The notes under the pieces are model-generated. The model ran no database searches, had not been told where the DNA came from, and saw only the letters and a list, made by a program, of their open reading frames with translations. A DNA stretch of 64,000 nucleotides from Sphingobacteriales bacterium (GTDB taxonomy: Bacteria; Bacteroidota; Bacteroidia; Chitinophagales; CAIOSU01). The translations under genes and the position numbers were made by a program. Below are positions 12,001-33,500 of this stretch, in pieces. The DNA is taken from NCBI GenBank assembly GCA_027483645.1, contig JAIXUD010000009.1, positions 116,814 through 180,813 on the forward strand. Direction: 5' to 3'. Position 1 is the stretch's first letter. Each line of letters begins with the position of its first letter.

Positions 12001-12663
12001 AGCTACCAATGAAATAACCGCTATTCGGGTGGATATGCTTTTAATAATCCAGAAGGCTATGCCCCCTGCAAAAATAAGTGCCCCAAGTATCAATATTATA
12101 ATAATTCGAACCGAATTGGCGTACTCTTCTTGGTTCACTACCCTATCTGCCTCCATATCAGCAGCGTTTCGAGCCACCAGCTCTTCAACCAAACTAGTAG
12201 CTGCTTGCCTTCCTTTAAGGCCGTCTAAAATCGATATCTGTGTCGCTTTTTCATAATTACCAGCTATTGAAAGGGCTATAATTTGGGTTAATGCTTTACG
12301 ATAATTGCCCCAAGTTACTCGGAAATCCTTAATCAACTTTCTTCCTTCAATCGTGGCAACTTCATCTAGTTCTATTAACATGGAATCAAGCGCTGCAATG
12401 TTAGCATCAATTACATTTTGATAAACCTCCCTACTTGCTGAGTCTTTAACGAGGATAATGTTCTTCTCATCCCTAGTTAAATTAAGCATGGTGATGGTTA
12501 TCTTGTTACACAGCAGCAACCTTTTGGAAGAGTTATCCACCATATTCACTAATCGCTCATTGCTATCTGCCAGCTTGGTGACGGTAAATAATGTGGCTGA
12601 AACCAAAATCAGGAATATAAAGGCAAACCCTAATAACAACTTTGCTCTAATCGTCAAATTCAT
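9037..12663 (-). CDS. Hybrid sensor histidine kinase: TM-bounded helical sensor (4HB_MCP-like), HAMP-like linker, GAF, E/Q-rich coiled coil, HisKA, HATPase_c and three receiver domains
   Basis: The H-box is MSHELRTPLN (His codon 10984-10986). The N-box is LLSNAIKFT, G1 DTGIGI and G2 GGTGLGLSIS. The three REC domains carry DIDLPGMDG, DLGLPDMSG and DIMMPEMDG. The N-terminus (MNLTIRAKLLLGFAFIFLIL...) plus a second TM (IIIILILGALIFAGGIAFWII) encloses a ~170-aa helical periplasmic region. Confidence 0.85.
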   Translation of the reverse strand: MNLTIRAKLLLGFAFIFLILVSATLFTVTKLADSNERLVNMVDNSSKRLLLCNKITITMLNLTRDEKNIILVKDSASREVYQNVIDANIAALDSMLIELDEVATIEGRKLIKDFRVTWGNYRKALTQIIALSIAGNYEKATQISILDGLKGRQAATSLVEELVARNAADMEADRVVNQEEYANSVRIIIILILGALIFAGGIAFWIIKSISTRIAVISLVARKIASREHVAEDFYDEHKDELNQVSLALTDIAQSFSEVSENAGLVAAGNYNTDFQPRSLKDTLGNAIKGMTQSLRETTEQNEKQNWLTTGQNRLNEVLRGDQGIEELASNTIKFLTNYLEAQVGAIYLKMDVSSDLELSGQYGLSGQSGLPKTIVMGEGAVGQAAADQKIQLLEGVEAAHIKVRSALVDAVPANVVVAPFMFEGETLGVLEIGRLQPITTAEHDFVANSMESIAISLNSALSRKRILHLIEETQRQSEELQSQQEELRQLNEELEEYTQNLRQQQEELQVTNEELEEQTQLLEAKNNEVEAARHAVEQKSNQLEQSSQYKSEFLANMSHELRTPLNSLLILSKDLADNKGKNLTDDQVESAEIINKSGIDLLNLINEVLDLSKIEAGKMTLNLEDLNLKNWSQQVYKNFRHQTDAKALQLVVSLGDNLPNTLSTDTQRIDQIVKNLLSNAIKFTEHGNVTLSIHREGIDHIAISVSDTGIGIPIEKQGWIFEAFQQAEGGTARRYGGTGLGLSISRKLAELLGGEITVLSQAGKGATFKLLLPVKPPVPQYQHEEIAKPAPIKVFVKSEEFLNYPSIEDDRNDLAEGDKFILIIEDDINFAKVVARQARQKGFKVISAATGEDGLVLAERYKPQAIILDIDLPGMDGNRVLAELKANPSTRHVPVHIMSGNERTIAPIKEGAVEYLTKPIDKAQLEEAFARMENFINRKMKNLLIIEDDPNARRVICKLIGNGDVKCMEAGSGEEGLRILENGEIDCIVLDLGLPDMSGFDFIHTLEQNDHFRTPPIIIYTGRELSRAENDELERYAESIIIKGVKSEERLLDETALFLHRTINKLPEQQRDMITSMYDKDNVFQGLKVLVVDDDMRNVFALSKVLKERGMEVTKAENGLKALEALENTPDVQIVLMDIMMPEMDGYEAMRRIRAQIKYKNLPVLALTAKAMKDDRQKCIDAGANDYISKPIDVDRLLSLMRVWLSK

Positions 12664-12679
12664 ATAGTATTATATTAAG

Positions 12680-13243
12680 CTATTCACTTAGCTGTATGAG
12701 TAAATCTACAATTTTTTCTATAGAAAGTACATGTGTAGTTTTCGTTGCTGCAATGGCATATTTCGGCATCGTTGCAGCCTCAGCCGTTTCAGGGTCTTGT
12801 ACTACTGGCAACCCACCACAATCTTGTATATTTTTAAGCCCCTGTGCCCCATCATGGTTGGCTCCAGTAAGCACTATCCCAATTAGCTGGTGCCTGAAAG
12901 CATCGGCTGCCGAATCGAACAACACATCTACCGAAGGGCGCGCATAATTAACCTTAGCATCAGCCGACAAAGAAAAGGTGCGATTTTTCTCTATAAGTAA
13001 ATGGTAATTTGCTGGGGCCACGTATACATAGCCCGGCAAGGCCAACTCTTTTTCCTCGGCCTCCTTTACAGTGAGGGCGGTCATATTATTGAGCATAGAA
13101 ACCCATAAGCTATCAGAGGTGGCGCCAATATGCTGCACCACTATTATGGGCAAAGGAAAACTGGCAGGCAAAGGGCCCAATATTCGCTTCAAGGCAGAAA
13201 GCCCACCCATAGAAACGCCTATCACCACGGCCTCATAGTTCAT
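12680..13243 (-). CDS. cheB: CheB-type protein-glutamate methylesterase, catalytic domain only (no receiver)
   Basis: It has the GVSMGG serine motif, VVQH, and a GANHDGAQGL block. I prefer the ATG at 13243 (MNYEAVVIGVSMGG). The longer ORF to 13321 would overlap cheR by 56 nt. Confidence 0.8.
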   Translation of the reverse strand: MNYEAVVIGVSMGGLSALKRILGPLPASFPLPIIVVQHIGATSDSLWVSMLNNMTALTVKEAEEKELALPGYVYVAPANYHLLIEKNRTFSLSADAKVNYARPSVDVLFDSAADAFRHQLIGIVLTGANHDGAQGLKNIQDCGGLPVVQDPETAEAATMPKYAIAATKTTHVLSIEKIVDLLIQLSE

Positions 13244-13265
13244 ACACAATCCTTGTTTTGCTATG

Positions 13266-14087
13266 CTAATACCTCTTCTTAAAAATTCGCTGTTTCTTGT
13301 CAATTTCAGTATACTTTTCATGCACGTCGCCCACCCTAATCCCTTCTTTAGAGCCGAGGCACAGTATACCGCCAGTTATCAAACTATCATGAAACAGTTG
13401 GTGCACCTTAGTCTGCAAATCAACATTGAAGTAAATGAGTACATTACGGCAAAGCAACAAATGCACTTCAGCAAATACCCCATCCGTTACCAGATTGTGT
13501 TGCGCCCATACAATATTCCGCTTTAGCGATTGGTGCATAATAACACTATTGTACTGTGACGTATAGTATTTAGAGAAGTCTTCCTTGCCACCACCTTTAA
13601 GGTAGTTGCCGGTGTATTCTTTTATTTGCTCAATACTATAAATGCCATTTTTTGCTTGGTCGAGCGCGGTTTGGTTGAAATCAGTGGCATAAATGGTAGC
13701 CCGGTCATACAAGCCCTCCTCTTGCAACACTATGGCCATGGAGTATGCCTCTTGACCAGTTGAACAGCCGGCGTGCCATATTTTAATAAACGAATACGTT
13801 TTGAGCATTGGGATAACCTGGGTGCGCAATACGGAGTAGAAATCAGGGTCGCGGAACATTTCGGTTACGGTTATGGAAAGGTCCTGCAGAAGCATTGCTG
13901 CAAAGCCCGCATCTTTAATAGTGCGTTCTTGCAGCTCGGTAACTGTTTTAATGTGCGAGAGTGCCATACGGTGCTTTACCCGCCGCATCAAGTGCGCCTC
14001 CGAGTAGTCGCGGAAATCAAAACCGTATAGCTGGTAAACCGTATCCAGCAAGGGCCGTATCTCCATATCCGTAAACAAAACACCCAT
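13266..14087 (-). CDS. cheR: CheR-type protein-glutamate O-methyltransferase
   Basis: The N-terminal helical CheR_N pattern is GFDFRDYSEAHLMRRV. The SAM-binding block is IWHAGCSTGQEAYSMAI. A CRNVLIYF motif is also present. Confidence 0.85.
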   Translation of the reverse strand: MGVLFTDMEIRPLLDTVYQLYGFDFRDYSEAHLMRRVKHRMALSHIKTVTELQERTIKDAGFAAMLLQDLSITVTEMFRDPDFYSVLRTQVIPMLKTYSFIKIWHAGCSTGQEAYSMAIVLQEEGLYDRATIYATDFNQTALDQAKNGIYSIEQIKEYTGNYLKGGGKEDFSKYYTSQYNSVIMHQSLKRNIVWAQHNLVTDGVFAEVHLLLCRNVLIYFNVDLQTKVHQLFHDSLITGGILCLGSKEGIRVGDVHEKYTEIDKKQRIFKKRY

Positions 14088-15712: not shown

Positions 15713-15879
15713 AGACTTTTTATTTTATTCCTTAAAAAATACTCGTAAATTGATGCTGAATATATGAACTAGATTGTGAAAATCAAAATCAGACCTTTTA
15801 TTTAAGACAAAAAATTAGCTTGTGTGCTGGCAAAAGCAGTTGTTCTTTTGCATCAGTTAATTCCATTAAAACAACTACG

Positions 15880-18024
15880 ATGGCCACTTTCAAATATATC
15901 ATAGTCAGCTTAGGATTAGCCCTGCTTTCCCTAAGTGCCGTTGCCTCTACTACCGAGTGGCTTAACCTTACCAATAGCAACCACATAACTGCCATAGTAC
16001 AGCATGGGAATACCTTGTGGGTAGGCTCGCGAGGCGGCGGGTTGGCCAAAATAGACCTTGCCACCGGTAGTAAGACCTTTTATAATAAAGCCAACAGTGG
16101 GCTACCCAGCAACCAGATTGAAGCCATACAAGTAGACCAGCAAAACACCGTTTGGATTGGTACATACGACCAAGGTTTGGTGCGATTTGACGGTAGGCAA
16201 CTATGGGAAGTAATCAGCCATGACGGCACCGGCATATCCGTTCGCACGGATATATATGACATGAAGCTTGATGAAAACGGCGACCTATGGATTGGTACCT
16301 TGTTTAGTTTGCTCAAATATGACGGCAGCACTTTCACTGATTACCCTTTGCCTGGCTATACCGCCGCCTCGGCCATATTAGTATTGGCCCCTAATGATAT
16401 CTACATGGCATGGGGTGGTAATGGTGGTTTTGTATCACCATTAATGCACTTTGACGGCACCGAGGTTGATACAGTACCCGGTATGGGACTGGACGGCATA
16501 TACCAACTACACCTTGATGGGCAAGACAGAATTTGGGCTTGCTATAATGGCGGGATTGCTCTGAAAAATGGCAATAGCTGGACAAAATTTGACAGCACCA
16601 ACTCAGCCATTACCAACAAGCAGGCCCGTTCTTTGGTGGAATGGAACGGCACGCTAGCATTGGGTACTGATGATGGCATATTTACCTATAATGGCACAAC
16701 TTGGGTAACCAGCAATATCAGCCAAAAGAACATCAACAAACTGGCAGTAACCAACAATGGTGAACTATATGTGGGCACAATGGATGCTGGCCTTTTCAAA
16801 ACCAATGGAAACTTACTGCAACGGGTACAGGCTTCCAACTCCATGATACCTACCAATCAACTTTCTGGTGGTTTCAACAAGGGTGGCGAACTGGTATTTA
16901 GAAATAGCTTGGGTGCGAGTTTGATTACTTTTGCCAACGGCGTTTGGGGTGCAAATGGTTTCGCTGGTACTGCCAGCGGTAGCCCCGCAATGGTGCTGGC
17001 TCCAGATAATTCCATCTGGCTTTGCGATTACAACAACCTTTACCACCTTACCGGCAGCAACCTGCAAACATGGAAGCTGGCAGACTATGGTATCCCATCA
17101 GCGGGTATTAGTGCCATGGAGGTGAGCCCAAGCGGAACGGTTTATGTGGGCACCTATACACTAGGCTTTTTCACTTTCGATGGACTCACATTTAAGCGCT
17201 ATACCCGCGCCAACTCTACCCTATCGTCAGACCGTATCACCAGCTTTGCCTTCCCCAATGCGGCCATACTTATTGGCACCAATGTGGATGTTGCGCAGGG
17301 GGTTAACTATGGTGGTGGCATAGAAGTATTTAATGGCAACACGTTTAGCTTGATACACCCGGACAATAGCGACCTGCAATCGAAGTACATATCCGACATT
17401 ATACAGCACGGTGATAGCTTATGGATTGGCGGCGATGGCGGTTTCAGCCTTTTGCATAACGGGGTATATACCAACTACCTCTACAACAATGGCAGTGGCT
17501 GTCCGCTCACATTTATCAAGCACATGGCCATTAACAGCAAAGGAGAAGTATATGCCACGGGCTACAACATTGATTCGGAAGCGATTATGGTAAAGTGGGA
17601 TGGTAGTACCTTTGAGGTGTTTGATGCTAGCAACACCCCCATCACCGAGTTTGCTTTCAACCTCCACCACATGCTATTTGACGATTACGACAACCTTTGG
17701 CTGCTACACGGCAGCGGTGTGTTTATCTACAAAGAAGGCGGCATAACCAACGTTAATGAAGACTTGGCGAGTGGTATATTGTCGCCAAAGCAGGCTAATA
17801 CCGTAAAGCTTTATCCAAACCCAGTAACTACCAACTTTACCATACAAATACCGCAGGCAGGTGGCAACATTACCATCTTCAACATGATGGGTGCCAAAAT
17901 ATATGGTACCACAATCACAGAAACAGAGCTAACCATAGATGCCAGTGAATGGCCTAAAGGCATCTATCTATACCAAATACAGACCACAGTAGGCTTTGAA
18001 AGCGGGAAGTTTTTGGTGAGATAA
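15880..18024 (+). CDS. Secreted beta-propeller protein (two-component-regulator propeller type repeats) with T9SS C-terminal sorting domain
   Basis: I prefer the start at the ATG 15880 (MATFKYIIVSLGLALLSLSAVAS, a signal peptide). It has recurrent W(V/I)GT..GL..(F/Y)DG repeats. The C-terminus (KLYPNPVTTNFTIQ...GIYLYQIQTTVGFESGKFLV) fits the T9SS sorting-domain pattern. Confidence 0.8.
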   Translation: MATFKYIIVSLGLALLSLSAVASTTEWLNLTNSNHITAIVQHGNTLWVGSRGGGLAKIDLATGSKTFYNKANSGLPSNQIEAIQVDQQNTVWIGTYDQGLVRFDGRQLWEVISHDGTGISVRTDIYDMKLDENGDLWIGTLFSLLKYDGSTFTDYPLPGYTAASAILVLAPNDIYMAWGGNGGFVSPLMHFDGTEVDTVPGMGLDGIYQLHLDGQDRIWACYNGGIALKNGNSWTKFDSTNSAITNKQARSLVEWNGTLALGTDDGIFTYNGTTWVTSNISQKNINKLAVTNNGELYVGTMDAGLFKTNGNLLQRVQASNSMIPTNQLSGGFNKGGELVFRNSLGASLITFANGVWGANGFAGTASGSPAMVLAPDNSIWLCDYNNLYHLTGSNLQTWKLADYGIPSAGISAMEVSPSGTVYVGTYTLGFFTFDGLTFKRYTRANSTLSSDRITSFAFPNAAILIGTNVDVAQGVNYGGGIEVFNGNTFSLIHPDNSDLQSKYISDIIQHGDSLWIGGDGGFSLLHNGVYTNYLYNNGSGCPLTFIKHMAINSKGEVYATGYNIDSEAIMVKWDGSTFEVFDASNTPITEFAFNLHHMLFDDYDNLWLLHGSGVFIYKEGGITNVNEDLASGILSPKQANTVKLYPNPVTTNFTIQIPQAGGNITIFNMMGAKIYGTTITETELTIDASEWPKGIYLYQIQTTVGFESGKFLVR

Positions 18025-18165: not shown

Positions 18166-18396
18166 GTATCAAGTATCAAGTACTGCTGTTTATATTTCAG
18201 CGCGCTACCCTGTATTTCCGGAAACATGATACGTACGTAGGGCGGTGCCCTAAGCTAATATACAAGACCCCGTTGGGGAACCCATAATTCGGTACGTTTA
18301 CCTCGGTACTCCGCTTCAGGCATACGTCCGTATCATATTGGTTCAATAAGAAAAGGCCTTTAAGGATCTTATACTTGATACTTGATACTTGATACT
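18166..18396. repeat. Structured intergenic repeat (copy A) flanked by inverted heptamer arrays
   Basis: The left array is gtatcaagtatcaagtact (18166-18184). The right array is tacttga x3 (18372-18392), its reverse complement. The core at 18216-18296 shares ttccggaaa, agggcggtgccc, ccccgttgggg and cggtacg with 33341-33433. An internal stem pairs atgatacgtacg (18227-18238) with cgtccgtatcat (18325-18336). Confidence 0.75.
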
Positions 18397-21235
18397 ACTC
18401 AAACTTATGCCCCATCTCAATGGCTTTATTGTAGAAATACCTACCGCGTTCAGGGTCGCCTACTTGCGAGTGCAAATCCCACAAAAGCAACACGGTTTTT
18501 AATTCATTAGGGCGTAGGCTGTGGGCCTTTTCAAAGTATGGTATAGCCTCAGCGGGTCGGCCAGATTCTAAGAAAATGGCAGCCATATTCATATAATTAT
18601 CAGGATCGTTTGGAATCATTTTAATGGCTTGCTGGGCAACCTGATAAGCTTTCTCTACATTCCCCATCCTAAAGTAAAGATAGTTGAGATTGGAGTACCC
18701 AGTTGAAACATACGGGTCGGAAGCAATAAACCGCTCATAACTTCTAGCAGCATCTTCGTTTCGGCCCAATTGATCTAAGCATATAGCGTAAGGTAGCAGT
18801 GCTTGCGGTGGAGGTATGGAAACTGCCATAAACTGTTCAAAATAGGCTACCGAGAGCTTACAATCATTTTTAAAGCTATACATGTGCGACAAATCGAACA
18901 AGGCGCTGTGAAACTTCGGTGCCACCGCTAAGGACTGCTTGAGGTATTTTTCGGCAGTAGCAAAATGTTTGGCCTGGTTGCGCTCATCAGCTATCCCTTC
19001 CATCACATAAAAATTGCCTAACAGCTGCTGCGTTTTGGCGGAGTTTGGCGAAATGGCACCATCATGGGTGTATAATGCAAGTTTACTACTCCAATTGGTG
19101 TTTCGGACAACAGTACGTGCCGCATAAAGGCATGTAATAATTGCTACTACTACTAAAAAAGTGGGCTTAAAGTCCTTTATATTTAGCTGCTGCAGGTTTG
19201 GCAATTTGAACAATTTGATAATGCCCCACGCCAAAAGCATACAAAAACCCAATGAGGTTCCAAAAGCTAATCGCTCGGCCACTATACCGGTAATTAATAC
19301 CCCAATATTGGAAATAAACAACAGGCCCAGCAATAGGTAAAGTAATGAAAAACTAAGTATCGCATCGCGCTTATACAGCCAAAAAGCCAATACTAGCAAT
19401 GCTAAGTAACCAAGCGAGCAAAGCCATGCGATAGGGCTGGTGAAATCAACTAATGGTATTTGGTTGTATCCATAGTAAAACCGCAATTTTAGTGGGGCAA
19501 CAAACAGATAGGTATAATAGCCCATAACTTTAGAAGCGGTAGCCAACCGAACGTAAACGTCTTCGCTAGCCACTAATGGGTTTTCTACAAAGTCAACCTG
19601 TCTACCTGCTCCGGGCACTATGTTGGTTACGGTTTTGGTGCCATCGCCATACGGGTCAGGCAGGGCTGCATAGTAAGCCCCTAAATTTTTAGCGTAAATT
19701 GGATTTTCCGGCTGATTAGGATAAATTGTAAGCACGAACAACGTGGCCAGCCCAATACCTGCGAAAGAAGTATAAAACACAAGCGGACGCTTTATCCATG
19801 GCTGCAATAAAAGGTAAGCTCCGCCCAAAAAGTCCATCACCCAAATCAAATAATTGCTTGGTTCCAAATAAAGACCGACCGACCCAAAAAAGAACAAGAA
19901 AAACGGTAAAAAGAACCTGAACTTTTGGCGTTTCTGGAATAGCCCGTAATGGATAAGCGCCAACGAAAATAGAATCGCAACATCCGTTGCAGCTGTTTCC
20001 ACATCATTGATTTCAATAACCAAATATACTAGGGCAACAAATAAAGCCAAGATGGCACTTAACACCCTTGGCAGTCCAATAGTATAACTGTACAAATTGC
20101 TCAGCAATAAACCCATAACTATGAAGGTGAGCATAGCAAAACCAAAATTCGAAAGAGCCACACCAATGGCAAGCAGCACCAACAAAACAGGGTAAGGCTT
20201 TAGGTAATTGGGCAAGAAAAGGGTTGAAAGAAAAACAATCGTTAGGCATAACCACATTACCACGCGCAAATCGAGATATAAAGCCAATAAAGCGCCAAAG
20301 GTGAGCACCAGCAAAGTCGCTAGGGGCAGCCAATCATTTCTAGTAATAGATTTCTGCGTTTTTGCAGGAGTGCTGATGGACAATTGCGGAACTAATAAAC
20401 TTTTAAAAGCGGCCAATAGGGGTTGTGTGACCCCGTTAACACCTTGGGTTGATATCGTTTTAATTATCCACAACACTATAGGAAAACCTATGATAACCGC
20501 AATTAAAACAGCATTAATACCCTTCTCATAAATAGGTGAAAAAAACAGCACCAGCAACATGAGCGGAAACGCTAAGGCAAGCAGGCGTAATAGGCTGGCA
20601 TTGGATAACCAGCATGCCGCCAATGGAATAATTACGGCATAGCTAAGCACCGAACGCTTAGACAGTACAGAGAGTATAATGAGCAGCATAAATAACATGA
20701 ACTCCTTAATCGTACCTTGGCGCGCATACCTTAATGCCCAAAAAAGCGCCGAGATGCCAAAGAGAAAGCTGAAAATTTCATCGCGGTTTTTAATGCTAGC
20801 TACCACTTCGGTATGGATGGGGTGCGCAGCGAAAAGCAAAGTAGCCAATGCGGGAAATAGCCAACCAACATCTGGCTTTAAAGAGCGAAGTACAAACAAT
20901 AACACCATACAAGCCAACCCATACAGCAGGGCATTTATGGCATGGCCTACATTGGGATTGTCGCCAAAGATGGTATGCTCTATGGCAAAGCTAGCCAGCA
21001 CTACCGGGCGGTATTCATAATAGTTGCCTACTTTGTTATCGTAATAGTATGAGCTGAATATTTCTGGAATGGCTTTGATGCCCTTTGAAGTAAGTGGATG
21101 GTTGCGGGTAACTAGTTCATCATCCAGCGCATAACTGTTGGGTATAGTGTTGGCATATAGTAAAAAGGCAAAAAATCCCAATACCAAGGCTATTGCCCAC
21201 CATTGTTTCTCGCCCATCACTTGTGCTGCCTTCAT
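18395..21235 (-). CDS. Polytopic GT-C-type glycosyltransferase-like membrane protein with C-terminal TPR domain (TMTC/PMT-like)
   Basis: The N-terminal loop motif is YALDDELVTRN (DDE codons 21116-21124), followed by YRPVVLASFA. More than 15 hydrophobic helices run through about residue 700. The last ~230 aa are TPR-like repeats. It is the last gene of the glycan operon. Confidence 0.65.
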   Translation of the reverse strand: MKAAQVMGEKQWWAIALVLGFFAFLLYANTIPNSYALDDELVTRNHPLTSKGIKAIPEIFSSYYYDNKVGNYYEYRPVVLASFAIEHTIFGDNPNVGHAINALLYGLACMVLLFVLRSLKPDVGWLFPALATLLFAAHPIHTEVVASIKNRDEIFSFLFGISALFWALRYARQGTIKEFMLFMLLIILSVLSKRSVLSYAVIIPLAACWLSNASLLRLLALAFPLMLLVLFFSPIYEKGINAVLIAVIIGFPIVLWIIKTISTQGVNGVTQPLLAAFKSLLVPQLSISTPAKTQKSITRNDWLPLATLLVLTFGALLALYLDLRVVMWLCLTIVFLSTLFLPNYLKPYPVLLVLLAIGVALSNFGFAMLTFIVMGLLLSNLYSYTIGLPRVLSAILALFVALVYLVIEINDVETAATDVAILFSLALIHYGLFQKRQKFRFFLPFFLFFFGSVGLYLEPSNYLIWVMDFLGGAYLLLQPWIKRPLVFYTSFAGIGLATLFVLTIYPNQPENPIYAKNLGAYYAALPDPYGDGTKTVTNIVPGAGRQVDFVENPLVASEDVYVRLATASKVMGYYTYLFVAPLKLRFYYGYNQIPLVDFTSPIAWLCSLGYLALLVLAFWLYKRDAILSFSLLYLLLGLLFISNIGVLITGIVAERLAFGTSLGFCMLLAWGIIKLFKLPNLQQLNIKDFKPTFLVVVAIITCLYAARTVVRNTNWSSKLALYTHDGAISPNSAKTQQLLGNFYVMEGIADERNQAKHFATAEKYLKQSLAVAPKFHSALFDLSHMYSFKNDCKLSVAYFEQFMAVSIPPPQALLPYAICLDQLGRNEDAARSYERFIASDPYVSTGYSNLNYLYFRMGNVEKAYQVAQQAIKMIPNDPDNYMNMAAIFLESGRPAEAIPYFEKAHSLRPNELKTVLLLWDLHSQVGDPERGRYFYNKAIEMGHKFE

Positions 21236-21287
21236 ACCTGTACAAATATAGGAATTTAGTTGTGGCTATAATGCCTACCATTTCCCA

Positions 21288-22250
21288 TCACAATCTATTC
21301 AGTATCGCTTTGAGCCAATTGTATACGTTGTATCTGCCAACAAAAAGCCACTTACCCAACAGTGAAGCTGGCACCCTTCTATTTGTGACACGCCATACGT
21401 ACTCCGCTTGCGCTACATTAACAGGTGCGGTTTTATCAAGAGGGTCTTTAGGTAATCCGCTTTCTATTTCAAAGCCAACATGGTAACGCAACATTGTGTT
21501 AATGGGTGGTGGGCTTAGTGGCTGTCCATCATGTAATATTACCTCAAACAGGGATAGTTGCAAAGCAAAATGCGTACCGGCATATCCTTTGTTGGTAGTA
21601 AAAGATACCTTGGGATAAACAAAGTACAACTGTTTCTCCAATAAATACTGTACACAAAGTTTCTTCCACGACTGTTTGCCCCAGCGCTGTACATAAACAG
21701 GCAAAAGTTGGTTATCAGCCTGTGAATGGCTTTTCAACCAAGCTTCAAAGCCTTGCCATTGTTTGGCCGTCCATGCTTGCCCCCATGAGGAGGGAAATTG
21801 CATTAAGTAAGCATCCAACCCATCAAGGTACGGTGCAAATGGATAGTAATCGCTTTCTTTAATCTGGTAGCTATATAGGGAGATACCAGCTATAAGTGCT
21901 TCATTTTCATAGGCCTTAAGGGTATCCACCGAAAATTGATAGAAACCTCTTGCCACCTCCAAATCATCTTCTAGCAAAATGATACTACCATATTGCGCTG
22001 TAAGCCCACCACACTCTAGTATATGCGCTTTGAGGCCTAGCCTTGTTGGATGCTTAATTATGGTTTTTTCGCCATAAGGCCATAGTAACTGCTCTGCTAT
22101 TGCAATTACAGCAGCATGGCCTCCCCCATCTATGGATATCACCAGCCGGGCGCTGCCCAAATACTCAGCACTCAGCAAGCTATCCAGCAAGCCTTGCAAG
22201 GCATGTGGCCTATCCCATGCTGCGATAACTATAGTTGGCTGGTTTTTCAT
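21288..22250 (-). CDS. GT-A fold glycosyltransferase resembling the GnT-I (GT13) family
   Basis: The N-terminus is PTIVIAAWDRPHALQGLLDSL. The EDD metal-binding motif sits in ILLEDDLEVARGFYQF (codons 21963-21971), which closely resembles the EDDLEVAPDFF block of animal GnT-I. Its start overlaps the asnB-like stop by 4 nt. Confidence 0.6.
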   Translation of the reverse strand: MKNQPTIVIAAWDRPHALQGLLDSLLSAEYLGSARLVISIDGGGHAAVIAIAEQLLWPYGEKTIIKHPTRLGLKAHILECGGLTAQYGSIILLEDDLEVARGFYQFSVDTLKAYENEALIAGISLYSYQIKESDYYPFAPYLDGLDAYLMQFPSSWGQAWTAKQWQGFEAWLKSHSQADNQLLPVYVQRWGKQSWKKLCVQYLLEKQLYFVYPKVSFTTNKGYAGTHFALQLSLFEVILHDGQPLSPPPINTMLRYHVGFEIESGLPKDPLDKTAPVNVAQAEYVWRVTNRRVPASLLGKWLFVGRYNVYNWLKAILNRL

Positions 22251-24091
22251 GGTTTTTGGGCAGCTCTTTTAAAGAAATGTTCGTGCCAGAGGTATGGTGA
22301 GAGTGCCAGCCATGCTTGCTCGGCATCTTCGTTGGTGGCGATTGGGTTGACCCATAGCTTTTCCAGTTTTTGCTTGGCGATTAGATTGTCAGTTAAATCA
22401 AATTGTGAAAAGCTTTGAGAAGCAATAGTATCTTGCAAAAACGTCTTCCAAGGTCCTCGCAGCCAATCTGCCAAAGGAGCTTGAAAACCAATTTTATCTT
22501 TGCGCTCCACAATACTTTTGGGCAGCCACGGTTGCACCGCAGCGCGCAGCAGTGCTTTGCTATAGCCATTGCGTATCTTGCTCTCCCAAGGTACGGAAAA
22601 GCTAAAAGCGACAAGCTCAGGATCTAAAAACGGCATGCGTATTTCCACCCCCGAGCGCATGGAGAACCTATCGTAATTGCGCAACAGCGTGGGGAATATA
22701 GTGTAATGGAACAACCTGTACAGGGCATAATTATAGTACCCCATCTTGCGGATGGCCTCTCCGTGTAGTTGCTCATCGTGCTTTGTACCAGGTAGCTTTT
22801 CATCAAGCCATTGCTCCTTTATGCGATGGGCCTGCATGAACAAATACCGATGGTTTCCAGTTTTTCGGGCTTTGATGATGCCCCTATCTGGTTGCTGGCC
22901 CTCGTAAGTCTGCAAGATGTCCTTCCACTTACCCGGGTCCAAGCCAGCATCAATCATAGCCAGTAGCATAAAATTGCCATACCCGCTAAACATTTCATCA
23001 GGCCCATGGCCATCCACACTTACATACACCTGCTGCTGTCGATAATGGCGGTACAGCTCCATCATGGGTGATGGCGGTGTGCGAAATATCTCTTCAAAAT
23101 GGTACAAATCGTCGGGTAGCTTCTGTAGTGCGGTTGCCGCATCCAGTGCCACCTCGTGCAGTGGCACCTGTTTTTCGGTAGCCAATAGGCGGGCATACTG
23201 GCTTTCATCTACCCTGCTATTGAGGAACGTGGCCGTGAATGCCTTGCTTAGCCTATCCCCTCCCTGAAGCGCACAAGCTGCGCCCAACACTGCCGACGAA
23301 TCCAAACCTCCACTAATGGCTGCGCCAACCGGCACATCGGCCCGCAAAGTAAGGCCTACCGACTTGGCAAATAACGTTCGGTATTGCACCGCTTGCTCCT
23401 GAAAGGAAGCCGGAGCGTTTACCAAATGTTCCAATGTATCCCAGTATTGCTTCAAGCTTAGTTGCCCGTCCTTAAAAACTCCATAATGCCCAGCGGGGAA
23501 GCGTTTGATGCCTTCTACTAGCGTATCGGCAACGCTTTCATAGCTGTCATATCGCTTCAGCAGTTTCTTCAATTGATGGCTAGGTTGCCAACCATCAGCT
23601 AAAGCCATTAAAGCCTTCATCTCAGACCCAAAGGTAAACGGCCCATGTGCTTGCGAGTAAAACAGGGGCTTCTCGCCAAACCTATCTCGAGCTAAAAAGA
23701 GGGTTTTGTCGTCTTCGTTCCATATCGCGAATGCCCACATCCCCTTAAACTTCAAAAGGCACTGCTTATGCCATTGACGGTAAGCCGCCAGTAGTACTTC
23801 CGTATCGCATTCGGTACGGAAGGTGTGGCCGAAACCCTCAAGCTCTGTTCGCAGCTCACGGTAATTGTATATCTCTCCGTTGAAGGTAATGGTGAGGTTG
23901 CCCAAAGCCATGGGCTGCGCCGCTTCTGGTTTAAGGTCGATAATGGACAACCGTCGATGGCCAAGGGTGACATACTGGCTTGGGTGTTCCCAAATACCTT
24001 CCCCATCAGGCCCGCGGTGGGCCAGCCGGTCAAGCGCCGAGTGAAATCGGCCCCGGTCTATGGATGGTATTATACCCAATATGCCGCACAT
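22247..24091 (-). CDS. asnB: Asparagine synthase (glutamine-hydrolysing) family amidotransferase
   Basis: MCGILGI provides the Cys2 nucleophile of the class II amidotransferase domain. SGGLDSS is the PP-loop. At 614 aa and embedded in a glycan operon, it suggests amidation of a sugar carboxylate rather than Asn synthesis. Confidence 0.85.
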   Translation of the reverse strand: MCGILGIIPSIDRGRFHSALDRLAHRGPDGEGIWEHPSQYVTLGHRRLSIIDLKPEAAQPMALGNLTITFNGEIYNYRELRTELEGFGHTFRTECDTEVLLAAYRQWHKQCLLKFKGMWAFAIWNEDDKTLFLARDRFGEKPLFYSQAHGPFTFGSEMKALMALADGWQPSHQLKKLLKRYDSYESVADTLVEGIKRFPAGHYGVFKDGQLSLKQYWDTLEHLVNAPASFQEQAVQYRTLFAKSVGLTLRADVPVGAAISGGLDSSAVLGAACALQGGDRLSKAFTATFLNSRVDESQYARLLATEKQVPLHEVALDAATALQKLPDDLYHFEEIFRTPPSPMMELYRHYRQQQVYVSVDGHGPDEMFSGYGNFMLLAMIDAGLDPGKWKDILQTYEGQQPDRGIIKARKTGNHRYLFMQAHRIKEQWLDEKLPGTKHDEQLHGEAIRKMGYYNYALYRLFHYTIFPTLLRNYDRFSMRSGVEIRMPFLDPELVAFSFSVPWESKIRNGYSKALLRAAVQPWLPKSIVERKDKIGFQAPLADWLRGPWKTFLQDTIASQSFSQFDLTDNLIAKQKLEKLWVNPIATNEDAEQAWLALSPYLWHEHFFKRAAQKP

Positions 24092-24093
24092 GC

Positions 24094-25191
24094 TTACTCT
24101 GGCTTTAGATGTTTTTCGATTTGCTCCGTTAATATGCGGATATTCTTATCCAATGAGAAATGTTCGGTTATCCTTTTCATGGCGGCAAGGCCCATTTCCT
24201 TGCTCAATTGGGCATCCAGCAGCAGTTTGGTAATGTAACTTGCCATACCATCCACATCTCCCTCGGCCACTAGGTATCCTGTTATACCATCCTCCACAAT
24301 CTCTGGTATGCCAGCATGCAGGGTGCTCACCACGGGCACTCCGCAAGCCCCTGCCTCCATAATAGCCACGGGTGTACCTTCGGTTTCACCATCAGTAGTG
24401 GTCATGGAATGTTGAACAAATACTTGTGCCATTTCCATTTCTTGCGAAACCTGCATCGGCGTAAGCACCCCTAAAAAATGGATGCGGTCGGTCAATTGTA
24501 ATTGCTCCACTTGCCGCTTACAATCAGCCAGCAGCTCCCCTGCCCCACCCATGCGCAAGATGGCATTGGGTATGGTTTCTAACACCTTGGCAAACGCCTT
24601 AATTACCAAATCCGGTCGTTTGGTATTGGCAAACCGGCCGATGGATAATACAATGTGCTCAGTACTGCTACGCTCATGGTATTTAAACAAATTTAAATCG
24701 ACACCGCACGGATTTAATACTAGCTTAGGGTCAGGAGCGCCCCATTCAAAGAGTTTCTTTTTCATGGGCTTTGACACTACAAAAATACTTGAAGCATAAT
24801 CAAACAACTCTTTGTATTTCAATTGATATTGACTCAAAACATCTGCCCGAGTAGCATCAAACCCATGGAAGTAAACCAAAAGCGGAATACCCGCCCGTTT
24901 ACAAACCCGTAGCCAATGTACCCCTACGGGGCCGTACTCTGCCAACACTAGCTTAATGTTCTGTTTGCGGATGGTATCAACCCATTTGTCTTCCAGCCAT
25001 TTGGTGCCGAAGTAAGGCAAGCGGGCTATGAAGCTTGGTAAAAGCATTTTTTGATTAAGCCCATACCCCAAGTATGCACCCCAAGCATAGCTTACCGTAT
25101 AGGGCAAATGCGCCACGTGCTGCCTAATAAAGGTTTCCGAAAACGCTCGCCTGTGAACAGAGGCGACTATAATATGGTTTTGTTGACTCAG
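24094..25191 (-). CDS. GT4-family (GT-B fold) glycosyltransferase; start codon unresolved
   Basis: The C-terminal E-x7-E block is EGTPVAIMEAGACGVPVVSTLHAGIPEIVEDGITGYLV. The N-terminal conserved block is HIIVASVHRRAFSETFI. There is no ATG, GTG or TTG between 25048 and 25316. The 5' limit given here is a CTG codon, and the true start is uncertain. Confidence 0.7.
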   Translation of the reverse strand: MSQQNHIIVASVHRRAFSETFIRQHVAHLPYTVSYAWGAYLGYGLNQKMLLPSFIARLPYFGTKWLEDKWVDTIRKQNIKLVLAEYGPVGVHWLRVCKRAGIPLLVYFHGFDATRADVLSQYQLKYKELFDYASSIFVVSKPMKKKLFEWGAPDPKLVLNPCGVDLNLFKYHERSSTEHIVLSIGRFANTKRPDLVIKAFAKVLETIPNAILRMGGAGELLADCKRQVEQLQLTDRIHFLGVLTPMQVSQEMEMAQVFVQHSMTTTDGETEGTPVAIMEAGACGVPVVSTLHAGIPEIVEDGITGYLVAEGDVDGMASYITKLLLDAQLSKEMGLAAMKRITEHFSLDKNIRILTEQIEKHLKPE

Positions 25192-25245: not shown

Positions 25246-26844
25246 ATGCTGACGCCTGATATCATAAAAGCCTATAACGCAGTACGTACCGCCGCCGATA
25301 AAAGTGTGCTGTGCCATGCACCGTTTACGAGTATCAACTTCGACCAGTTTGGTAGTATGACGGCCTGTTGCTACAACAAAAAGGAAGTGCTGGGCCGTGT
25401 TCCGCACCAAACGATCAAGGAAGCTTGGCTAAGCCCTACAGCCGAGCAGCTGCGCGCGCGCATGCGAAACAACGATTTGGGTGGGGGCTGCAGCTATTGC
25501 CAAGAACTACTGTTAGCGGGCAATCATCGCGGCACCAAAGCCTACTTTTATGATGAATTTGCCGAGGCACCTGCAACAGGATGGGACAAGGTAATGGCAC
25601 TATTTACCACTAAGAAAGTAGGCTTTCCGAAGGTATTTGAACTAGAGTTAAGCAATACCTGCAACCTAGAGTGCATCATGTGCAATGGGCACTTTTCATC
25701 GAGCATCAAAAAGAACCGAGAGCACCTGCCCGCACAATTGATCCCATATGGACCGGCATTTGTGGACGAGCTGGCCGAGTTTATGCCCTACCTTACCGAT
25801 ATGAAATTTTTGGGTGGAGAGCCTTTTTTGATTGATATTTATTACGACATCTGGGAGCGGATTATTGCTGTAAATCCGAAAATAAAAGTACACATTACTA
25901 CCAATGGCACCGTTCTGAATAACCGTGGTAAAAAGATTTTGGAGCAGTTAAATGTGGCTATTGTGCTTTCAATTGACTCGCTAGATAAAGAGACTTACGA
26001 AGGTATCCGCATCAATGCCAAATACGATAGGCTGATGGAGAACCTAGCCTTCTTTAAAACGCTAGTACAACAGAAGAAGACATATCTCACCTTTACTGTA
26101 TGCCCAATAATACAAAACTGGAAAACCCTTCCGCAATTGCTGCAAGTAGCTAATGAGGATGGCATCAACCTTCACTTTAATACAGTGTGGGCACCCGAAC
26201 AGGTATCTATGCAGTATCTAGATGCGGATACTTTGGCTGAGGTAATTACCTATTTGGAAGCCCACCTGCCCAATAACGTAACTGATCGTAAAGCGGCTAA
26301 CAATATACAGGTGTACCAACAGTACATTGATACTTTGAAGTATTGGCTAGAAGAAAAAAAGCAGCAGCTACCTGACTTAGAGCGCTTTAAGCATGTATCA
26401 CTTAATGCGGAAAACATATTGCCGATATTGCCTGCTGATAGCTTGCTTTCGGCTACCGTGTTATGCTGGTATGCCCAACTAATGCAGCATGGTAAAGGCG
26501 AAAGCTTGGCTGCACAGCTGCCTAATGGCAAAAAAATATTGGAGCTGCTAAGTTTGCCTACAATGCCTGAAGCTATTACCCAATTACGGCTTCAAACAAC
26601 CTCTTGGCAATTTATAATGCAATATATGGAAATGCTGGGCGTACTTGATAAGCTACTGGAGCAAGAAGGAAATGGCCTGTTGCCCCAGCGTATTGCACTG
26701 GTAATGCCCATTTTAATCCGTTCAGCAAAGCAAGACCAAGCCGCTAACGACCTAGCAGTAAATGGAGCGTTTTTACAATTGCGTGTGTTGAAGCAACCAT
26801 CAGAAAAGGCAGTGGTAGACTTGTATGAAAGCCTTTTTGGGTAG
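25246..26844 (+). CDS. Radical SAM enzyme with N-terminal twitch/SPASM-like Cys motif and ~200-aa C-terminal helical extension (paralog 1)
   Basis: The CX3CX2C motif is in ELSNTCNLECIMCNG (Cys139/143/146, nt 25660-25683). Upstream of it are C23-x12-G-x4-C41 and C82-x2-C85. Confidence 0.8.
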   Translation: MLTPDIIKAYNAVRTAADKSVLCHAPFTSINFDQFGSMTACCYNKKEVLGRVPHQTIKEAWLSPTAEQLRARMRNNDLGGGCSYCQELLLAGNHRGTKAYFYDEFAEAPATGWDKVMALFTTKKVGFPKVFELELSNTCNLECIMCNGHFSSSIKKNREHLPAQLIPYGPAFVDELAEFMPYLTDMKFLGGEPFLIDIYYDIWERIIAVNPKIKVHITTNGTVLNNRGKKILEQLNVAIVLSIDSLDKETYEGIRINAKYDRLMENLAFFKTLVQQKKTYLTFTVCPIIQNWKTLPQLLQVANEDGINLHFNTVWAPEQVSMQYLDADTLAEVITYLEAHLPNNVTDRKAANNIQVYQQYIDTLKYWLEEKKQQLPDLERFKHVSLNAENILPILPADSLLSATVLCWYAQLMQHGKGESLAAQLPNGKKILELLSLPTMPEAITQLRLQTTSWQFIMQYMEMLGVLDKLLEQEGNGLLPQRIALVMPILIRSAKQDQAANDLAVNGAFLQLRVLKQPSEKAVVDLYESLFG

Positions 26845-26892: not shown

Positions 26893-28497
26893 ATGCTGAC
26901 GCCTGAAATTATAAAAGCATACAACGCAGCCCGCACAACGCCCGACAAAAGCGTACTGTGCCATGCACCCTTTACCAATCTCAACTTTGAGCAAAATGGC
27001 AACGTAACTGCTTGCTGCTACAACCGCAGCCATGTGCTCGGCAGTTATCCTAACAATTCCATTATGGATATTTGGCTTGGACAAAAAGCCGATGAGTTGC
27101 GCCGCTATATACAAAACAACGATTTAGGCGGGGGCTGTATCTTATGCTCATACCAACTTACCAGCGGCAATTTCAACAACTCGCGGGCAAAAGGATATGA
27201 CTATGTGGCCGAAAACAAGGTGGTGCAATACTTCAAAAAGGCACAAGGATACCTTGCCCGGGGAAAATTTATGCAGATGCCCACTTGCTTGGAATTTGAA
27301 CTGAGCAACACCTGCAACCTAGAGTGCGTAATGTGCAACGGCTATTTCTCATCTTCTATACGGAAGAATCGGGAGAACAAAGCCCCAATGGTTAACCCTT
27401 ATGATGATGCTTTTATAGAGCAGCTAAAGCCTTTTATACCTCACTTACTAGATGCCCGGTTTTTGGGTGGCGAGCCGTTTTTGATTGACCAATACTATCA
27501 AATATGGGATGCCTTTGTAGAGCTAAACCCTAAGGCCCGTATACATATTACTACCAATGCCACCATTATGAACCAAAGGGTTAAGACCCTTTTGGATAAG
27601 CTTACCTGCCACATCGTTATTTCCATGGACTCTATTGTGAGGGAGACCTACGAGGCAATACGCTTAAATGCAAAGTTTGACCGCGTGTGGGAGAATTTTA
27701 ACTACCTATACGATTACACCCGCCGCAAGGGCACCCGTATAAATTTTGCCGTATGCCCCATTACCCTAAACTGGCACGAGATGCCCGATTTGGTGAGGTT
27801 CTGTAACGAAAAAGATATTGTGCTGTTTTTCAACACTGTGGTAGTTCCACAAACTTACTCGCTTGAATATCAGCCAGCAAGTGTACTTGAACAAGTAGTG
27901 GCACTTTATGATGCCACCGAGCTACCTGCAGTAACGCAGCGCGAACAATACAACAAACAAATGTTTCTGGACATGGCCAACCAGATAAGGGCTTGGTATG
28001 AACTGGCCCTTAAAGCTGAAAGCAAAAAAGAAGGCCAGGAAAACCAAACCAACCAAGCCATAAACCAAGCACTGGCATCGGGTTTGATATTGCCAGAACA
28101 CCGGGCCGCGCAATACTTGGAGGTGCTGTACGAAATACTTTTCTATGCTCATGGTTTCCCTTACGCAGACGACGAAAAATCGCAAGAAGCGCAATTGATA
28201 GCTACTACGCGCCTGTTTTCGAGCCTTACCAAAATAGCCAAGCAATATGACCAAAACCAATATCTATCGGCCTTATTTGCGGCTTATCGCTATTTGCCAT
28301 TGCTCAACAATAGCCTTAACCCCGCACCCAACCATGCTACAAAGCTAGATGCGCTAATAAAAGAGGCCGGTACCATAGGCAACGCGGAGTGGATAGCCCA
28401 AGATATGAACCATGCAGAGCCGATGAAAGTGCTAAGCCACATGAATGCCCACAGCGCCGAACAACTAATAGGAGGCATGTACCAGCAATATTTTTAA
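26893..28497 (+). CDS. Radical SAM enzyme, paralog 2 of the preceding gene
   Basis: It has the same architecture and the same Cys positions (C23, C41/42, C82, C85; ELSNTCNLECVMCNG). The N-terminal 45 aa are nearly identical to paralog 1, and the C-terminal third is divergent. Confidence 0.8.
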   Translation: MLTPEIIKAYNAARTTPDKSVLCHAPFTNLNFEQNGNVTACCYNRSHVLGSYPNNSIMDIWLGQKADELRRYIQNNDLGGGCILCSYQLTSGNFNNSRAKGYDYVAENKVVQYFKKAQGYLARGKFMQMPTCLEFELSNTCNLECVMCNGYFSSSIRKNRENKAPMVNPYDDAFIEQLKPFIPHLLDARFLGGEPFLIDQYYQIWDAFVELNPKARIHITTNATIMNQRVKTLLDKLTCHIVISMDSIVRETYEAIRLNAKFDRVWENFNYLYDYTRRKGTRINFAVCPITLNWHEMPDLVRFCNEKDIVLFFNTVVVPQTYSLEYQPASVLEQVVALYDATELPAVTQREQYNKQMFLDMANQIRAWYELALKAESKKEGQENQTNQAINQALASGLILPEHRAAQYLEVLYEILFYAHGFPYADDEKSQEAQLIATTRLFSSLTKIAKQYDQNQYLSALFAAYRYLPLLNNSLNPAPNHATKLDALIKEAGTIGNAEWIAQDMNHAEPMKVLSHMNAHSAEQLIGGMYQQYF

Positions 28498-33305: not shown

Positions 33306-33340
33306 TAAACTTTGTTGGATAATAATTTTTTTAATGGTAA

Positions 33341-33500
33341 TTCCGGAAAACCATTTCGTACCGAGGGCGGTGCCCACGGCTAAAGTTATAGTGCCCCGTT
33401 GGGGCGTCAATAAAATTGTTCGAAATACGGTACGCCCCAAAGGGGCACCATAATTCTAGCGTAGGGCACCGCCCTACGTACGCCATATGTACGAAACATG
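33341..33500. repeat. Structured intergenic repeat (copy B), a palindromic dimer of the 18216-18296 element
   Basis: The left half is co-linear with copy A. The right half is its reverse complement, with a 21-nt exact match (33462-33482 to the reverse complement of 18232-18252). Internal mini-hairpins are gccccgttggggc and gccccaaaggggc. Confidence 0.8.

Follow-up and report, generated by a model that had tools for sequence, protein, structure and literature searches.

Among glycosyltransferases (GTs) of the GT-C type, tetratricopeptide repeats (TPRs) are so far known from the animal proteins TMTC1-4 and from one studied bacterial case, TfpW. TMTC1-4 are protein O-mannosyltransferases of the endoplasmic reticulum that act on cadherins; they constitute CAZy family GT105 and combine a TMTC_DUF1736 domain with TPRs (PMC7801869). 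TfpW of Pseudomonas aeruginosa group IV strains is a GT-C of 646 amino acids (aa) with 11 transmembrane (TM) helices, periplasmic TPRs and an essential DDx motif, and acts as pilin O-D-arabinofuranosyltransferase. The pathway to its donor begins with a UbiA-family enzyme. A dedicated flippase was not identified for it, and translocation of the donor was proposed to be a task of TfpW itself. Related logic is found in the three-component systems GtrA/GtrB/GtrC, ArnC/ArnEF/ArnT and PPPRS/MATE/GT136, the last of which was defined in 2024; known PPPRS/DPPRS members share 31-34% identity among themselves. The PMT family (GT39; fungal Pmt1/2/4, actinobacterial Pmt) transfers mannose from polyprenyl-phosphate-mannose to Ser/Thr of proteins. 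Here we describe a TMTC-like GT-C with a C-terminal TPR domain from a Sphingobacteriales bacterium, encoded in a stretch of 64,000 nucleotides (nt) of contig JAIXUD010000009.1 (positions 116,814 to 180,813; assembly GCA_027483645.1), hereafter the window.

The protein, its relatives and its gene neighbourhood are jointly best explained by a periplasmic GT-C that moves a polyprenyl-phosphate-linked sugar, made by the surrounding cluster, to an acceptor held by the TPRs. We consider this explanation likely. An earlier note on this DNA, made from the letters alone, had described an open reading frame (ORF) of 946 aa with the motifs YALDDELV and YRP, and both the ORF (18395-21235, minus strand, ATG start) and the motifs are present as claimed. 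YALDDELV occupies aa 35-42, and D38-D39-E40 correspond to nt 21124-21116, in agreement with the position given earlier for the acidic motif (21116-21124). The stretch YEYRPVVLASFA (aa 73-84) contains Y75-R76-P77. Judged by sequence comparison the ORF is a genuine conserved gene and not a chance frame, since an identical protein is on record at NCBI, more than 1000 homologues exist and the motif residues are invariant; the nearest full-length homologues are 56-60% identical. The parts of the protein, whose periplasmic loops are numbered EL1 to EL5 and whose helices were taken from AlphaFold2 (AF2) models, are as follows.

18395-21235, minus strand: entire gene for a TMTC-like GT-C glycosyltransferase of 946 aa in the long form, with 21 TM helices and a C-terminal TPR domain (ORF with ATG start; AF2 model; homologues)
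20531-21235, minus strand: N-terminal GT-C module, aa 1-235, TM1-TM7 (invariant columns; topology)
19718-20530, minus strand: ten-helix TM insert (aa 236-506) placed between TM7 and EL4 (absent from short forms; AF2 helices 238-504)
19061-19717, minus strand: C-terminal membrane part, aa 507-725, with EL4, TM8-TM11 and EL5 (sub-threshold TMTC_DUF1736 match; invariant columns; topology)
18398-19060, minus strand: TPR domain on the periplasmic side, aa 726-946, with twelve helices beyond aa 733 in about six TPR-like pairs (Pfam TPR_1/2/8, E ~1e-13; AF2 helices)

The AF2 model of the full-length protein, for which a 58-sequence alignment served as input, reached a pLDDT of 89.6 and a pTM of 0.84; the model of residues 1-725 reached 88.0 and 0.84. 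Both models contain 21 long hydrophobic helices, the last of which ends at aa 715, followed by twelve helices that form about six TPR pairs. The helices to about residue 700 that the earlier note had counted are thus borne out, as are its C-terminal TPRs, which score above the Pfam thresholds and match OGT, SPY and consensus TPRs in Foldseek and phmmer. Topology was derived from the AF2 helices and the loop charges by helix parity and the positive-inside rule. The short loops on the side of the N-terminus contain 16 Lys and Arg and 3 Asp and Glu, those on the opposite side 4 and 8, and from this excess of basic residues the N-terminus is predicted to be cytoplasmic; if the helices of the insert are not counted, the core comprises 11 TM helices in an N-in/C-out orientation. 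The insert adds an even number of helices (ten), so the orientation of core and TPRs is unchanged by it. On this topology the periplasmic side holds the loop with DD (aa 31-93), that with HPIHTEVVASIKNRDE, the residue K193, the long stretch at aa 505-600, the AERL loop (aa 642-659) and the TPR domain. Parity and charge agree with the periplasmic placement of the DD/DE loop that the earlier note had proposed; the cytoplasmic placement, which that note had named as its refutation, was not seen.

Conservation of the GT-C homologues was scored on the same 58-sequence alignment. Invariant residues in aa 1-235 are D38, D39, G52, I59, Y64, Y75, R76, P77, E86, H98, N101, H141, T142, E143, V145, K149, R151, E153, K193 and P204, and from aa 507 onward R545, E551, P553, P581, Y587, Y588, G589, G650, R655, R711, W715, D725 and S732. 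They include D38-D39, 8-9 residues after TM1 (aa 9-30), and Y75-R76-P77 in EL1; H141-T142-E143, K149, R151 and E153 in EL2; and K193 in EL3. The DUF1736-like EL4 holds R545, E551, P553, P581 and Y587-Y588-G589, and EL5 holds A-E654-R655-L. In the N-terminal module 67 of the 235 columns reach at least 80% conservation. Compared with distant long forms, the median identity is 47% in the N-terminal core, 24% in the TPR domain and 13% in the insert. This distribution bears on the idea that the protein is a catalytically inactive membrane scaffold, that is, a TPR adaptor with a retained GT-C-like fold which organises a periplasmic complex. Such a role would fit the public annotation as 'tetratricopeptide repeat protein' and the fact that the only above-threshold matches of the query in Pfam and NCBIfam are TPRs. 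However, about 33 invariant residues lie outside the TPRs, in GT-C active-site loops (DD, YRP, HTE, K.R.E, K193, R545, E551, R655), across sequences that are 25-30% identical, and conservation is higher in the membrane core than in the TPR domain. We regard a scaffold as highly improbable.

The link to the GT-C clan was made through the homologues. Among 51 long-form homologues, 23 match Pfam PMT_2 (best E 6.8e-9) and nine match TMTC_DUF1736 (E<=0.01). Short forms (described below) with 37-38% identity to the query have N-domains that, taken in isolation, exceed the Pfam cut-offs, with 31.2 bits against a cut-off of 27 for DUF1736 (P0038) and 31.6 against 26.1 for PMT_2. The query itself matches TMTC_DUF1736 at aa 550-598 with 17.0 bits (E 0.006), below the cut-off of 27, in which it differs from TMTC1-4; the match lies in the TM7-TM8 loop where it would be expected. 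Membership of the query in the PMT_2/GT-C clan is thus transitive on the sequence evidence. In Foldseek searches of the 1-725 model against the PDB, all matches with a probability of at least 0.9 are GT-C proteins (STT3A/B, PglB, DPY19, Pmt4); ArnT and EmbB follow at 0.3-0.54, and unrelated transporters outside GT-C do not exceed 0.18. Full-length Foldseek and phmmer searches against the PDB returned only TPR proteins and were dropped as evidence on the membrane domain. Neither PF02366 nor MIR was found in the query or the 51 homologues (E<=0.01), and the AF2 model has no beta-rich loop domain. By sequence, the protein is a GT-C enzyme of the TMTC/PMT_2 (DUF1736-containing) lineage and not a GT39 PMT: it shares with PMTs the predicted GT-C fold, the acidic loop-1 motif and the Foldseek match to Pmt4, yet lacks MIR and PF02366 and carries a C-terminal TPR array as putative acceptor-binding module. 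The TMTC/PMT_2-type GT-C with periplasmic TPRs foreseen in the earlier note is supported by the homologue matches, the predicted topology and the Foldseek matches of highest probability; its 'PMT-like' does not hold in the strict sense. An O-antigen ligase or Wzy-type polymerase was rejected, the sole Wzy_C_2 match being sub-threshold and within the TPR region.

The membrane-domain profile defines a large family: its matches comprise 79,159 representative clusters at E<=1e-3, of which 47,620 remain at E<=1e-10 and 6,845 at E<=1e-30. The closest genomic relatives stem nearly all from metagenome-assembled genomes of Bacteroidota (Chitinophagales, Flavobacteriales, Bacteroidales, Saprospiraceae, Sphingobacteriales). 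Our literature search for a characterised Bacteroidota TMTC/PMT_2-TPR protein found none.

The seven TMTC motifs M1-M7 (DD; SHKSYRP; RxD; KE(T/Q)xxT; DW; PxxP; ERxxY; Eisenhaber et al. 2021, PMC7801869) were compared with the family. M1 is present as the invariant D38-D39. M2 is retained in part (Y75-R76-P77), with H-K replaced by Y-E, and M3 is conservatively kept as R151-D-E153. Only the Lys of M4 (K193) is kept. The loop region of M5 has an invariant acidic residue (E551) and no Trp; M6 is absent in the query. M7 is kept as A-E654-R655-L-A-F, which corresponds to 'AERV' of the TMTCs. The layout likewise resembles that of TMTC1-4: an 11-TM N-in/C-out core precedes lumenal, here periplasmic, TPRs; DD lies in the first loop, YRP in the second helix of EL1 and R-x-(D/E) in EL2; EL3 has a Lys and EL5 the AER, and the loop that joins TM7 to TM8 is DUF1736-like. 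Unlike TMTC1-4, the window protein has ten extra TM helices just before the DUF1736-like loop, and neither PxxP nor the residues proposed as metal ligands (the Glu of KE(T/Q) and the Asp of DW) are conserved. It is moreover a bacterial protein encoded in a modified-sugar cluster, and its donor would presumably be undecaprenyl-based and need not be mannose. TMTCs probably also carry more TPRs than the six or so of the window protein.

The ten extra helices divide the family into two architectural classes that are newly defined here, a short form with 11 TM helices and a long form with 21. For short-form homologues (645-675 aa) the alignment covers aa 1-230 and 531-946 of the query with only 2 residues between, and their 11 TM helices match the published TMTC topology (PMC7801869). 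The short form of about 650 aa is as common as the long form, and homologues of 767 and 797 aa carry partial inserts. Within the insert none of the 271 columns is at least 80% conserved, and hhalign detected neither an internal repeat nor likeness to the core. An origin as internal 5+5 repeat or as core duplication was rejected, with hhalign probabilities of at most 2% apart from trivial shifts. Donor translocation by the insert was considered because the cluster contains no flippase and because TfpW has been suggested to work as flippase and transferase in one. The lack of conserved polar or catalytic columns, which would be expected of a transporter, argues on sequence grounds against a classical flippase role. 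As the insert is nearly free of sequence constraint, it is more likely an accessory membrane module of the long-form subfamily, structural or docking rather than catalytic.

TfpW resembles the family, in particular its short form, in size (646 aa) and layout; the comparison was made by published description. Shared are the cytoplasmic N-terminus, the 11 core TM helices, the DD motif in periplasmic loop 1 and the large periplasmic C-terminal TPR domain. TfpW has a YX6PFX7P motif in periplasmic loop 4, to which the invariant P581...Y587-Y588-G589 in EL4 of the window family may or may not correspond. In contrast to TfpW, the window protein has the 10-TM insert. The gene tfpW adjoins pilA, whereas no pilin gene lies next to the window gene; its neighbours are GT-A, GT4 and AsnB genes and a gene for cargo of type IX secretion (T9SS). 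The D-arabinofuranose genes (PPPRS, DprE1, DprE2, GtrA-like) were not found in the window cluster, which consists of the following genes upstream of the GT-C gene.

21288-22250, minus strand: 320-aa soluble GT-A-like protein with EDD motif, directly upstream of the GT-C gene (52-nt gap; Pfam GT2/GT13-like matches all sub-threshold)
22247-24091, minus strand: AsnB-type glutamine-dependent amidotransferase (Asn_synthase 7e-66; TIGR01536 7.5e-125)
24094-25149, minus strand: GT4 glycosyltransferase (Glycos_transf_1 2.6e-36)
25246-26844 and 26893-28497, plus strand: two tandem radical-SAM genes with N-terminal twitch/SPASM (NF033640 1.8e-57 and 1.2e-52)
28494-29438 and 29443-30489, minus strand: two SGNH/GDSL-type hydrolase or acyltransferase proteins (weak Lipase_GDSL_2; one N-terminal hydrophobic anchor each)
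30482-31321, minus strand: 279-aa GT8-like cytoplasmic glycosyltransferase with D105-x-D107 and H209-x-G-C-N...W (homology; invariant columns)
31318-32154, minus strand: 278-aa DXD-motif glycosyltransferase, Gly_transf_sug/Caps_synth-like (PF04488 1.9e-5, 25.7 bits against a cut-off of 23)
32151-33440, minus strand: polytopic prenyltransferase-like protein of the UbiA superfamily, motifs NDCFDIEQD and DRRKD (PF01040 9.3e-13; first ATG at 33305, giving 384 aa)

The earlier note had placed the GT-C gene at the end of one operon that starts with the UbiA-like gene. The UbiA-family assignment (PF01040) and the terminal position of the GT-C gene in its co-directional run were confirmed, the single operon was not. 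The GT-C gene closes a four-gene run (GT4, AsnB-like, 320-aa GT-A-like, GT-C). A second run, of five genes with the UbiA-like gene at its head, lies 7 kb upstream, with the opposite-strand radical-SAM genes between the two. At least three transcription units make up the window cluster. For the GT4 gene, the listed ORF with a TTG start (438 aa) runs to 25410 and overlaps the radical-SAM start at 25246 by about 165 nt. Given that a 71% identical homologue (L001) has 351 aa, the true start is probably near 25149, which would leave a divergent intergenic region of about 100 nt. The two radical-SAM proteins are 48% identical paralogues in which SPASM/twitch precedes the radical-SAM core; both genes stand on the opposite strand inside the glycan cluster.

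In scans for sigma-70 promoters and terminators around the GT-C gene, counts stayed at chance level; these scans do not cover Bacteroidota promoters. The octamer TATATTTG at 21242-21249 (minus strand), 6 nt 5' of the GT-C start codon and within the 52-nt gap behind the 320-aa gene, matches TAnnTTTG, the consensus for -7 promoter elements in Bacteroidetes. An internal promoter with a near-leaderless transcript is conceivable, as is a chance match.

UbiA-like and GT-C are the only polytopic proteins of the cluster. Both Asp-rich motifs are kept in the UbiA-like family. A 5-sequence profile of it matched chlorophyll synthase, DGGGPS and UBIAD1 in the PDB weakly (E ~1e-4 to 1e-3), NCBIfam gave only generic prenyltransferase and chlorophyll synthase, and the solved DPPRS (8j8j) was matched neither by the single sequence nor by the profile even at E<=10. 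A DPPRS-type phosphoribosyltransferase is hence not supported by the PDB and NCBIfam results. The GT8-like protein has no TM segment and shows an invariant D-x-D and an invariant H-x-G-C-N...W block; some of its 851 detected relatives carry PF01501. Searches against PDB sequences gave no significant match for the GT8-like protein (single sequence and 30-sequence profile) or for the 320-aa GT-A-like protein. The best, non-significant match of the latter was POMGnT1 (E 0.038), the enzyme that extends protein O-mannose, and Pfam GNT-I and MGAT2 appeared faintly.

Gene neighbourhoods were compared by clustering the ORFs of 89 loci (88 and the window region), with co-occurrence counted on non-redundant loci, 24 of the long and 52 of the short form. 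Around a 58% identical homologue the genes are arranged as in the window, down to the radical-SAM pair on the opposite strand. At the locus of a 27% identical homologue, the GT-C gene ends one co-directional run of UbiA, AsnB, epimerase/dehydratase, radical SAM, two unknown genes and a GT8-like gene, with a divergent ABC-2 transporter upstream. The canonical long-form operon, UbiA>AsnB>Epim>rSAM>c10>SGNH>GT8L>GT-C, was present at three loci (L005, L016, L051) and in part at two more (L022, L010). The functional link of UbiA-like and GT-C genes that the earlier note had drawn from the window is therefore supported at the level of the family, by distant loci (27-30% identical GT-C) with a single co-directional run. 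A GT8-like gene occurs at 13 of 24 long-form and none of 52 short-form loci, mostly on the same strand within about 230 nt, and the window GT8-like protein is 37-41% identical to the product of the gene directly adjoining GT-C in L005, L006 and L007. Twitch radical SAM was found at 8/24 long-form against 0/52 short-form loci, likewise c10 and SGNHa, with SGNH families confined to long-form loci; AsnB was found at 6/24 against 0/52 and, within the 10-kb flanks that limit this count, UbiA at 4/24 against 0/52. In 7 loci a homologue of the 320-aa GT-A-like protein is encoded by the gene immediately upstream of GT-C. Shared ancestry confounds all these co-occurrences, which do not count as independent events.

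The operon head gave reason to weigh a pentofuranose system of the TfpW, mycobacterial or GT136 type. There, the UbiA-like protein would be a polyprenyl-phosphate phosphoribosyltransferase using phosphoribosyl pyrophosphate, and lipid-linked ribofuranose would be modified by epimerase and radical SAM before transfer by the GT-C. A UbiA-family gene and a short-chain dehydrogenase/reductase (SDR) of the epimerase/dehydratase type do occur together in L005, L016 and L051, and published systems pair a UbiA-family PPPRS, epimerases and a GT-C, to which TfpW adds TPRs. Yet the UbiA-like sequence and profile miss DPPRS and find the other prenyltransferases named above, and the SDR of the canonical operon resembles the nucleotide-sugar epimerases GalE and RmlB. 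Neither a HAD or PAP2 phosphatase, nor a DprE1-like FAD enzyme, nor a MATE or GtrA flippase is encoded in the cluster. Such a pentofuranose pathway appears quite unlikely to us.

The proposed route follows the logic of the three-component systems, in which the sugar is loaded on polyprenyl phosphate in the cytoplasm, flipped and moved outside by a GT-C. An ArnC/GtrB/PgfS-like GT2 gene lies within 10 kb of the GT-C gene at 16 of 76 loci (5/24 long, 11/52 short), and its representative matches the ArnC model over the full length (E 2.5e-46). By analogy, such a nearby GT2 is the usual signature of polyprenyl-phosphate-monosaccharide donors for GT-C enzymes. The window differs from these systems in lacking a gene for a GtrB-like synthase or a flippase, in a GT-C with TPRs in place of a carbohydrate-binding module (CBM) or no extra domain, and in a long-form operon that adds AsnB-type, twitch radical-SAM, SGNH and GT8-like tailoring enzymes. 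With respect to PPPRS/MATE/GT136 in particular, the differences are the missing DPPRS match, the lack of a further polytopic protein in the cluster and a C-terminus of TPRs instead of a CBM.

We propose that the sugar would be made and tailored in the cytoplasm by the UbiA-like, GT8-like, DXD-motif, GT4, AsnB-type and twitch radical-SAM enzymes and carried on polyprenyl phosphate to the periplasmic face. The active site would be formed there by EL1 (D38-D39, Y75-R76-P77), EL2 (HTE...K.R.E), the DUF1736-like EL4 and EL5 (AERL). D38 and D39 may activate the acceptor, and R655, a likely phosphate ligand, may hold the phosphate together with K193. The TPRs would present the acceptor, and transfer would take place in the periplasm. 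By analogy this acceptor is most likely a Ser/Thr residue of an exported protein. A protein is slightly favoured because TMTC1-4 and TfpW, the two TPR-bearing GT-C types found to have a studied acceptor, both act on proteins, and we hold the chances of a Ser/Thr acceptor to be evenly balanced.

The gene content also bears on a glycan acceptor. The GT-C would then add a side-branch sugar to a surface polysaccharide (O-antigen, exopolysaccharide or capsule), or polymerise it, in the periplasm, as do GtrC, ArnT, GT136 and Emb/Aft, and the TPRs would dock the enzyme to export machinery or bind the glycan. Besides an amidotransferase and three or four cytoplasmic GTs, the cluster encodes two anchored SGNH proteins, a type that can O-acetylate or de-acetylate glycans outside the cytoplasm; in L004/L005 and further long-form loci the operon has ABC-2 type transporter genes at its flanks; and TPRs occur in polysaccharide secretion proteins too. 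The GT-C protein has weak NCBIfam matches to PrsT, BcsC and PilW, which represent generic TPR similarity. On the other hand, characterised glycan-acting GT-Cs bear CBMs, as GT136 does, or no extra domain, which sets them apart from the protein-modifying TMTCs and TfpW, and the window cluster has no Wzx, Wzy, Wzz or export genes. A glycan-modifying enzyme is a serious contender that we rate somewhat below an even chance.

Several observations weigh against a periplasmic sugar transferase acting on a TPR-held acceptor. The query has no Pfam GT-C match above threshold. The Foldseek E-values are weak (0.01-1.3) and the TM-scores low (0.22-0.35), probably owing to the 270-aa insert, and the membrane-domain profile retrieved nothing from PDB sequences at E<=10, so that ArnT, PMT and STT3 were not reached. 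The putative metal-binding residues of the TMTCs, the Glu of KE(T/Q)xxT and the Asp of DW, are not conserved in the family, nor is PxxP. A tblastn search of the 64-kb window for a GtrB-like polyprenyl-phosphate-sugar synthase was negative and no flippase-type gene is present in the window, which leaves the donor route unexplained. Several cytoplasmic GTs, anchored SGNH proteins and, in related loci, ABC-2 transporters are equally typical of polysaccharide pathways, and this content weakens the case for a protein acceptor. The co-occurrence of insert and GT8-like gene may reflect common descent rather than function. In the literature, no biochemical data for members of the GT-C family were found.

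Short-form loci offer further observations on possible substrates and pathways. Beyond the GT2 gene, their neighbours include β-ketoacyl synthase III (KAS III), SDR, AMP-ligase and giant SprB/CHU_C adhesins. Giant SprB/PKD/CHU_C repeat adhesins, which are T9SS cargo, flank the short-form gene in 7 of 52 loci (L008, L013, L059, L081 and others). The analogy to TMTC action on cadherin repeats suggests them as candidate substrates of the short forms. Three loci (L008, L014, L016) encode two GT-C/TPR paralogues each. A recurring module of KAS III-like, SDR, ArnC/GtrB-like GT2 and GNAT-like genes, often joined by an AMP-ligase and a B12-binding radical SAM, lies within about 3-6 kb of many members (L015, L024, L035, L047, L054, L055, L060, L065, L075 and others) and resembles a lipid or acyl-sugar pathway.

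In the window itself, a 734-aa T9SS cargo gene (15820-18024, plus strand; Reg_prop repeats and Por_Secre_tail) runs convergently towards the GT-C gene. The locus of the 58% identical homologue does not conserve it at this place, and a substrate relationship is thus unlikely. Just past the other end of the cluster, a TamB-like protein of 1686 aa (PF04357, 7.5e-51) and an Omp85/POTRA protein of 777 aa are encoded with a 4-nt overlap (35325-42715, plus strand), a TAM-type pair for outer-membrane assembly. The region 9037-14087 (minus strand) encodes a CheB-like methylesterase (12680-13321), a CheR-like methyltransferase (13266-14087) and a 1208-aa hybrid histidine kinase with 4HB_MCP sensor, GAF and three receiver domains, which together make up a chemotaxis-like signalling module.

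By sequence and layout the TMTCs are the closest family, and TfpW is the closest studied bacterial analogue. The fold, topology and donor logic of the earlier interpretation largely stand. Its operon structure does not, and its novelty was overstated: 'uncharacterised in bacteria' is too strong, as TfpW has been studied and three-component systems of UbiA, flippase and GT-C were described in 2024. The combination of GT-C, TPR and UbiA has precedent; a bacterial TMTC-like GT-C with 21 TM helices tied to a distinctive operon is new. Within the literature searched, the Bacteroidota GT-C/TPR family itself is unstudied. It is a very large family (47,620 representative clusters at E<=1e-10) annotated only as TPR protein, and we found no experimental study of it. 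The tie of the long form to a distinct conserved operon with UbiA-like, AsnB-type, twitch radical-SAM, SGNH and GT8-like genes provides concrete gene sets for finding the donor sugar. It also raises the question of what task a sequence-unconstrained 10-helix module performs inside a GT-C enzyme.

Bacteroidota O-glycosylate hundreds of proteins via a mannose-linked core. According to a 2025 review, the oligosaccharyltransferase and the core-glycan machinery of this general O-glycosylation 'remain undiscovered', and the pathway resembles eukaryotic O-mannosylation (PMC12871550); an earlier paper likewise described the Bacteroidota oligosaccharyltransferase as still undiscovered. Periplasm-facing TMTC homologues are an obvious candidate class for the enzyme that attaches the core. 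In its widest form, the proposal would be that the TMTC-like family, long and short forms together, represents the missing Bacteroidota protein O-glycosyltransferases: TPR paralogues would each choose periplasmic or T9SS-exported substrates, the long form would add an unusual amidated or radical-SAM-modified sugar, and the insert would dock the GT8-like enzyme, translocate the donor, or both. We consider this full proposal unlikely. The importance of the family would rise sharply if it did comprise the missing protein O-glycosyltransferases of the Bacteroidota, or if the insert were a built-in donor translocator.

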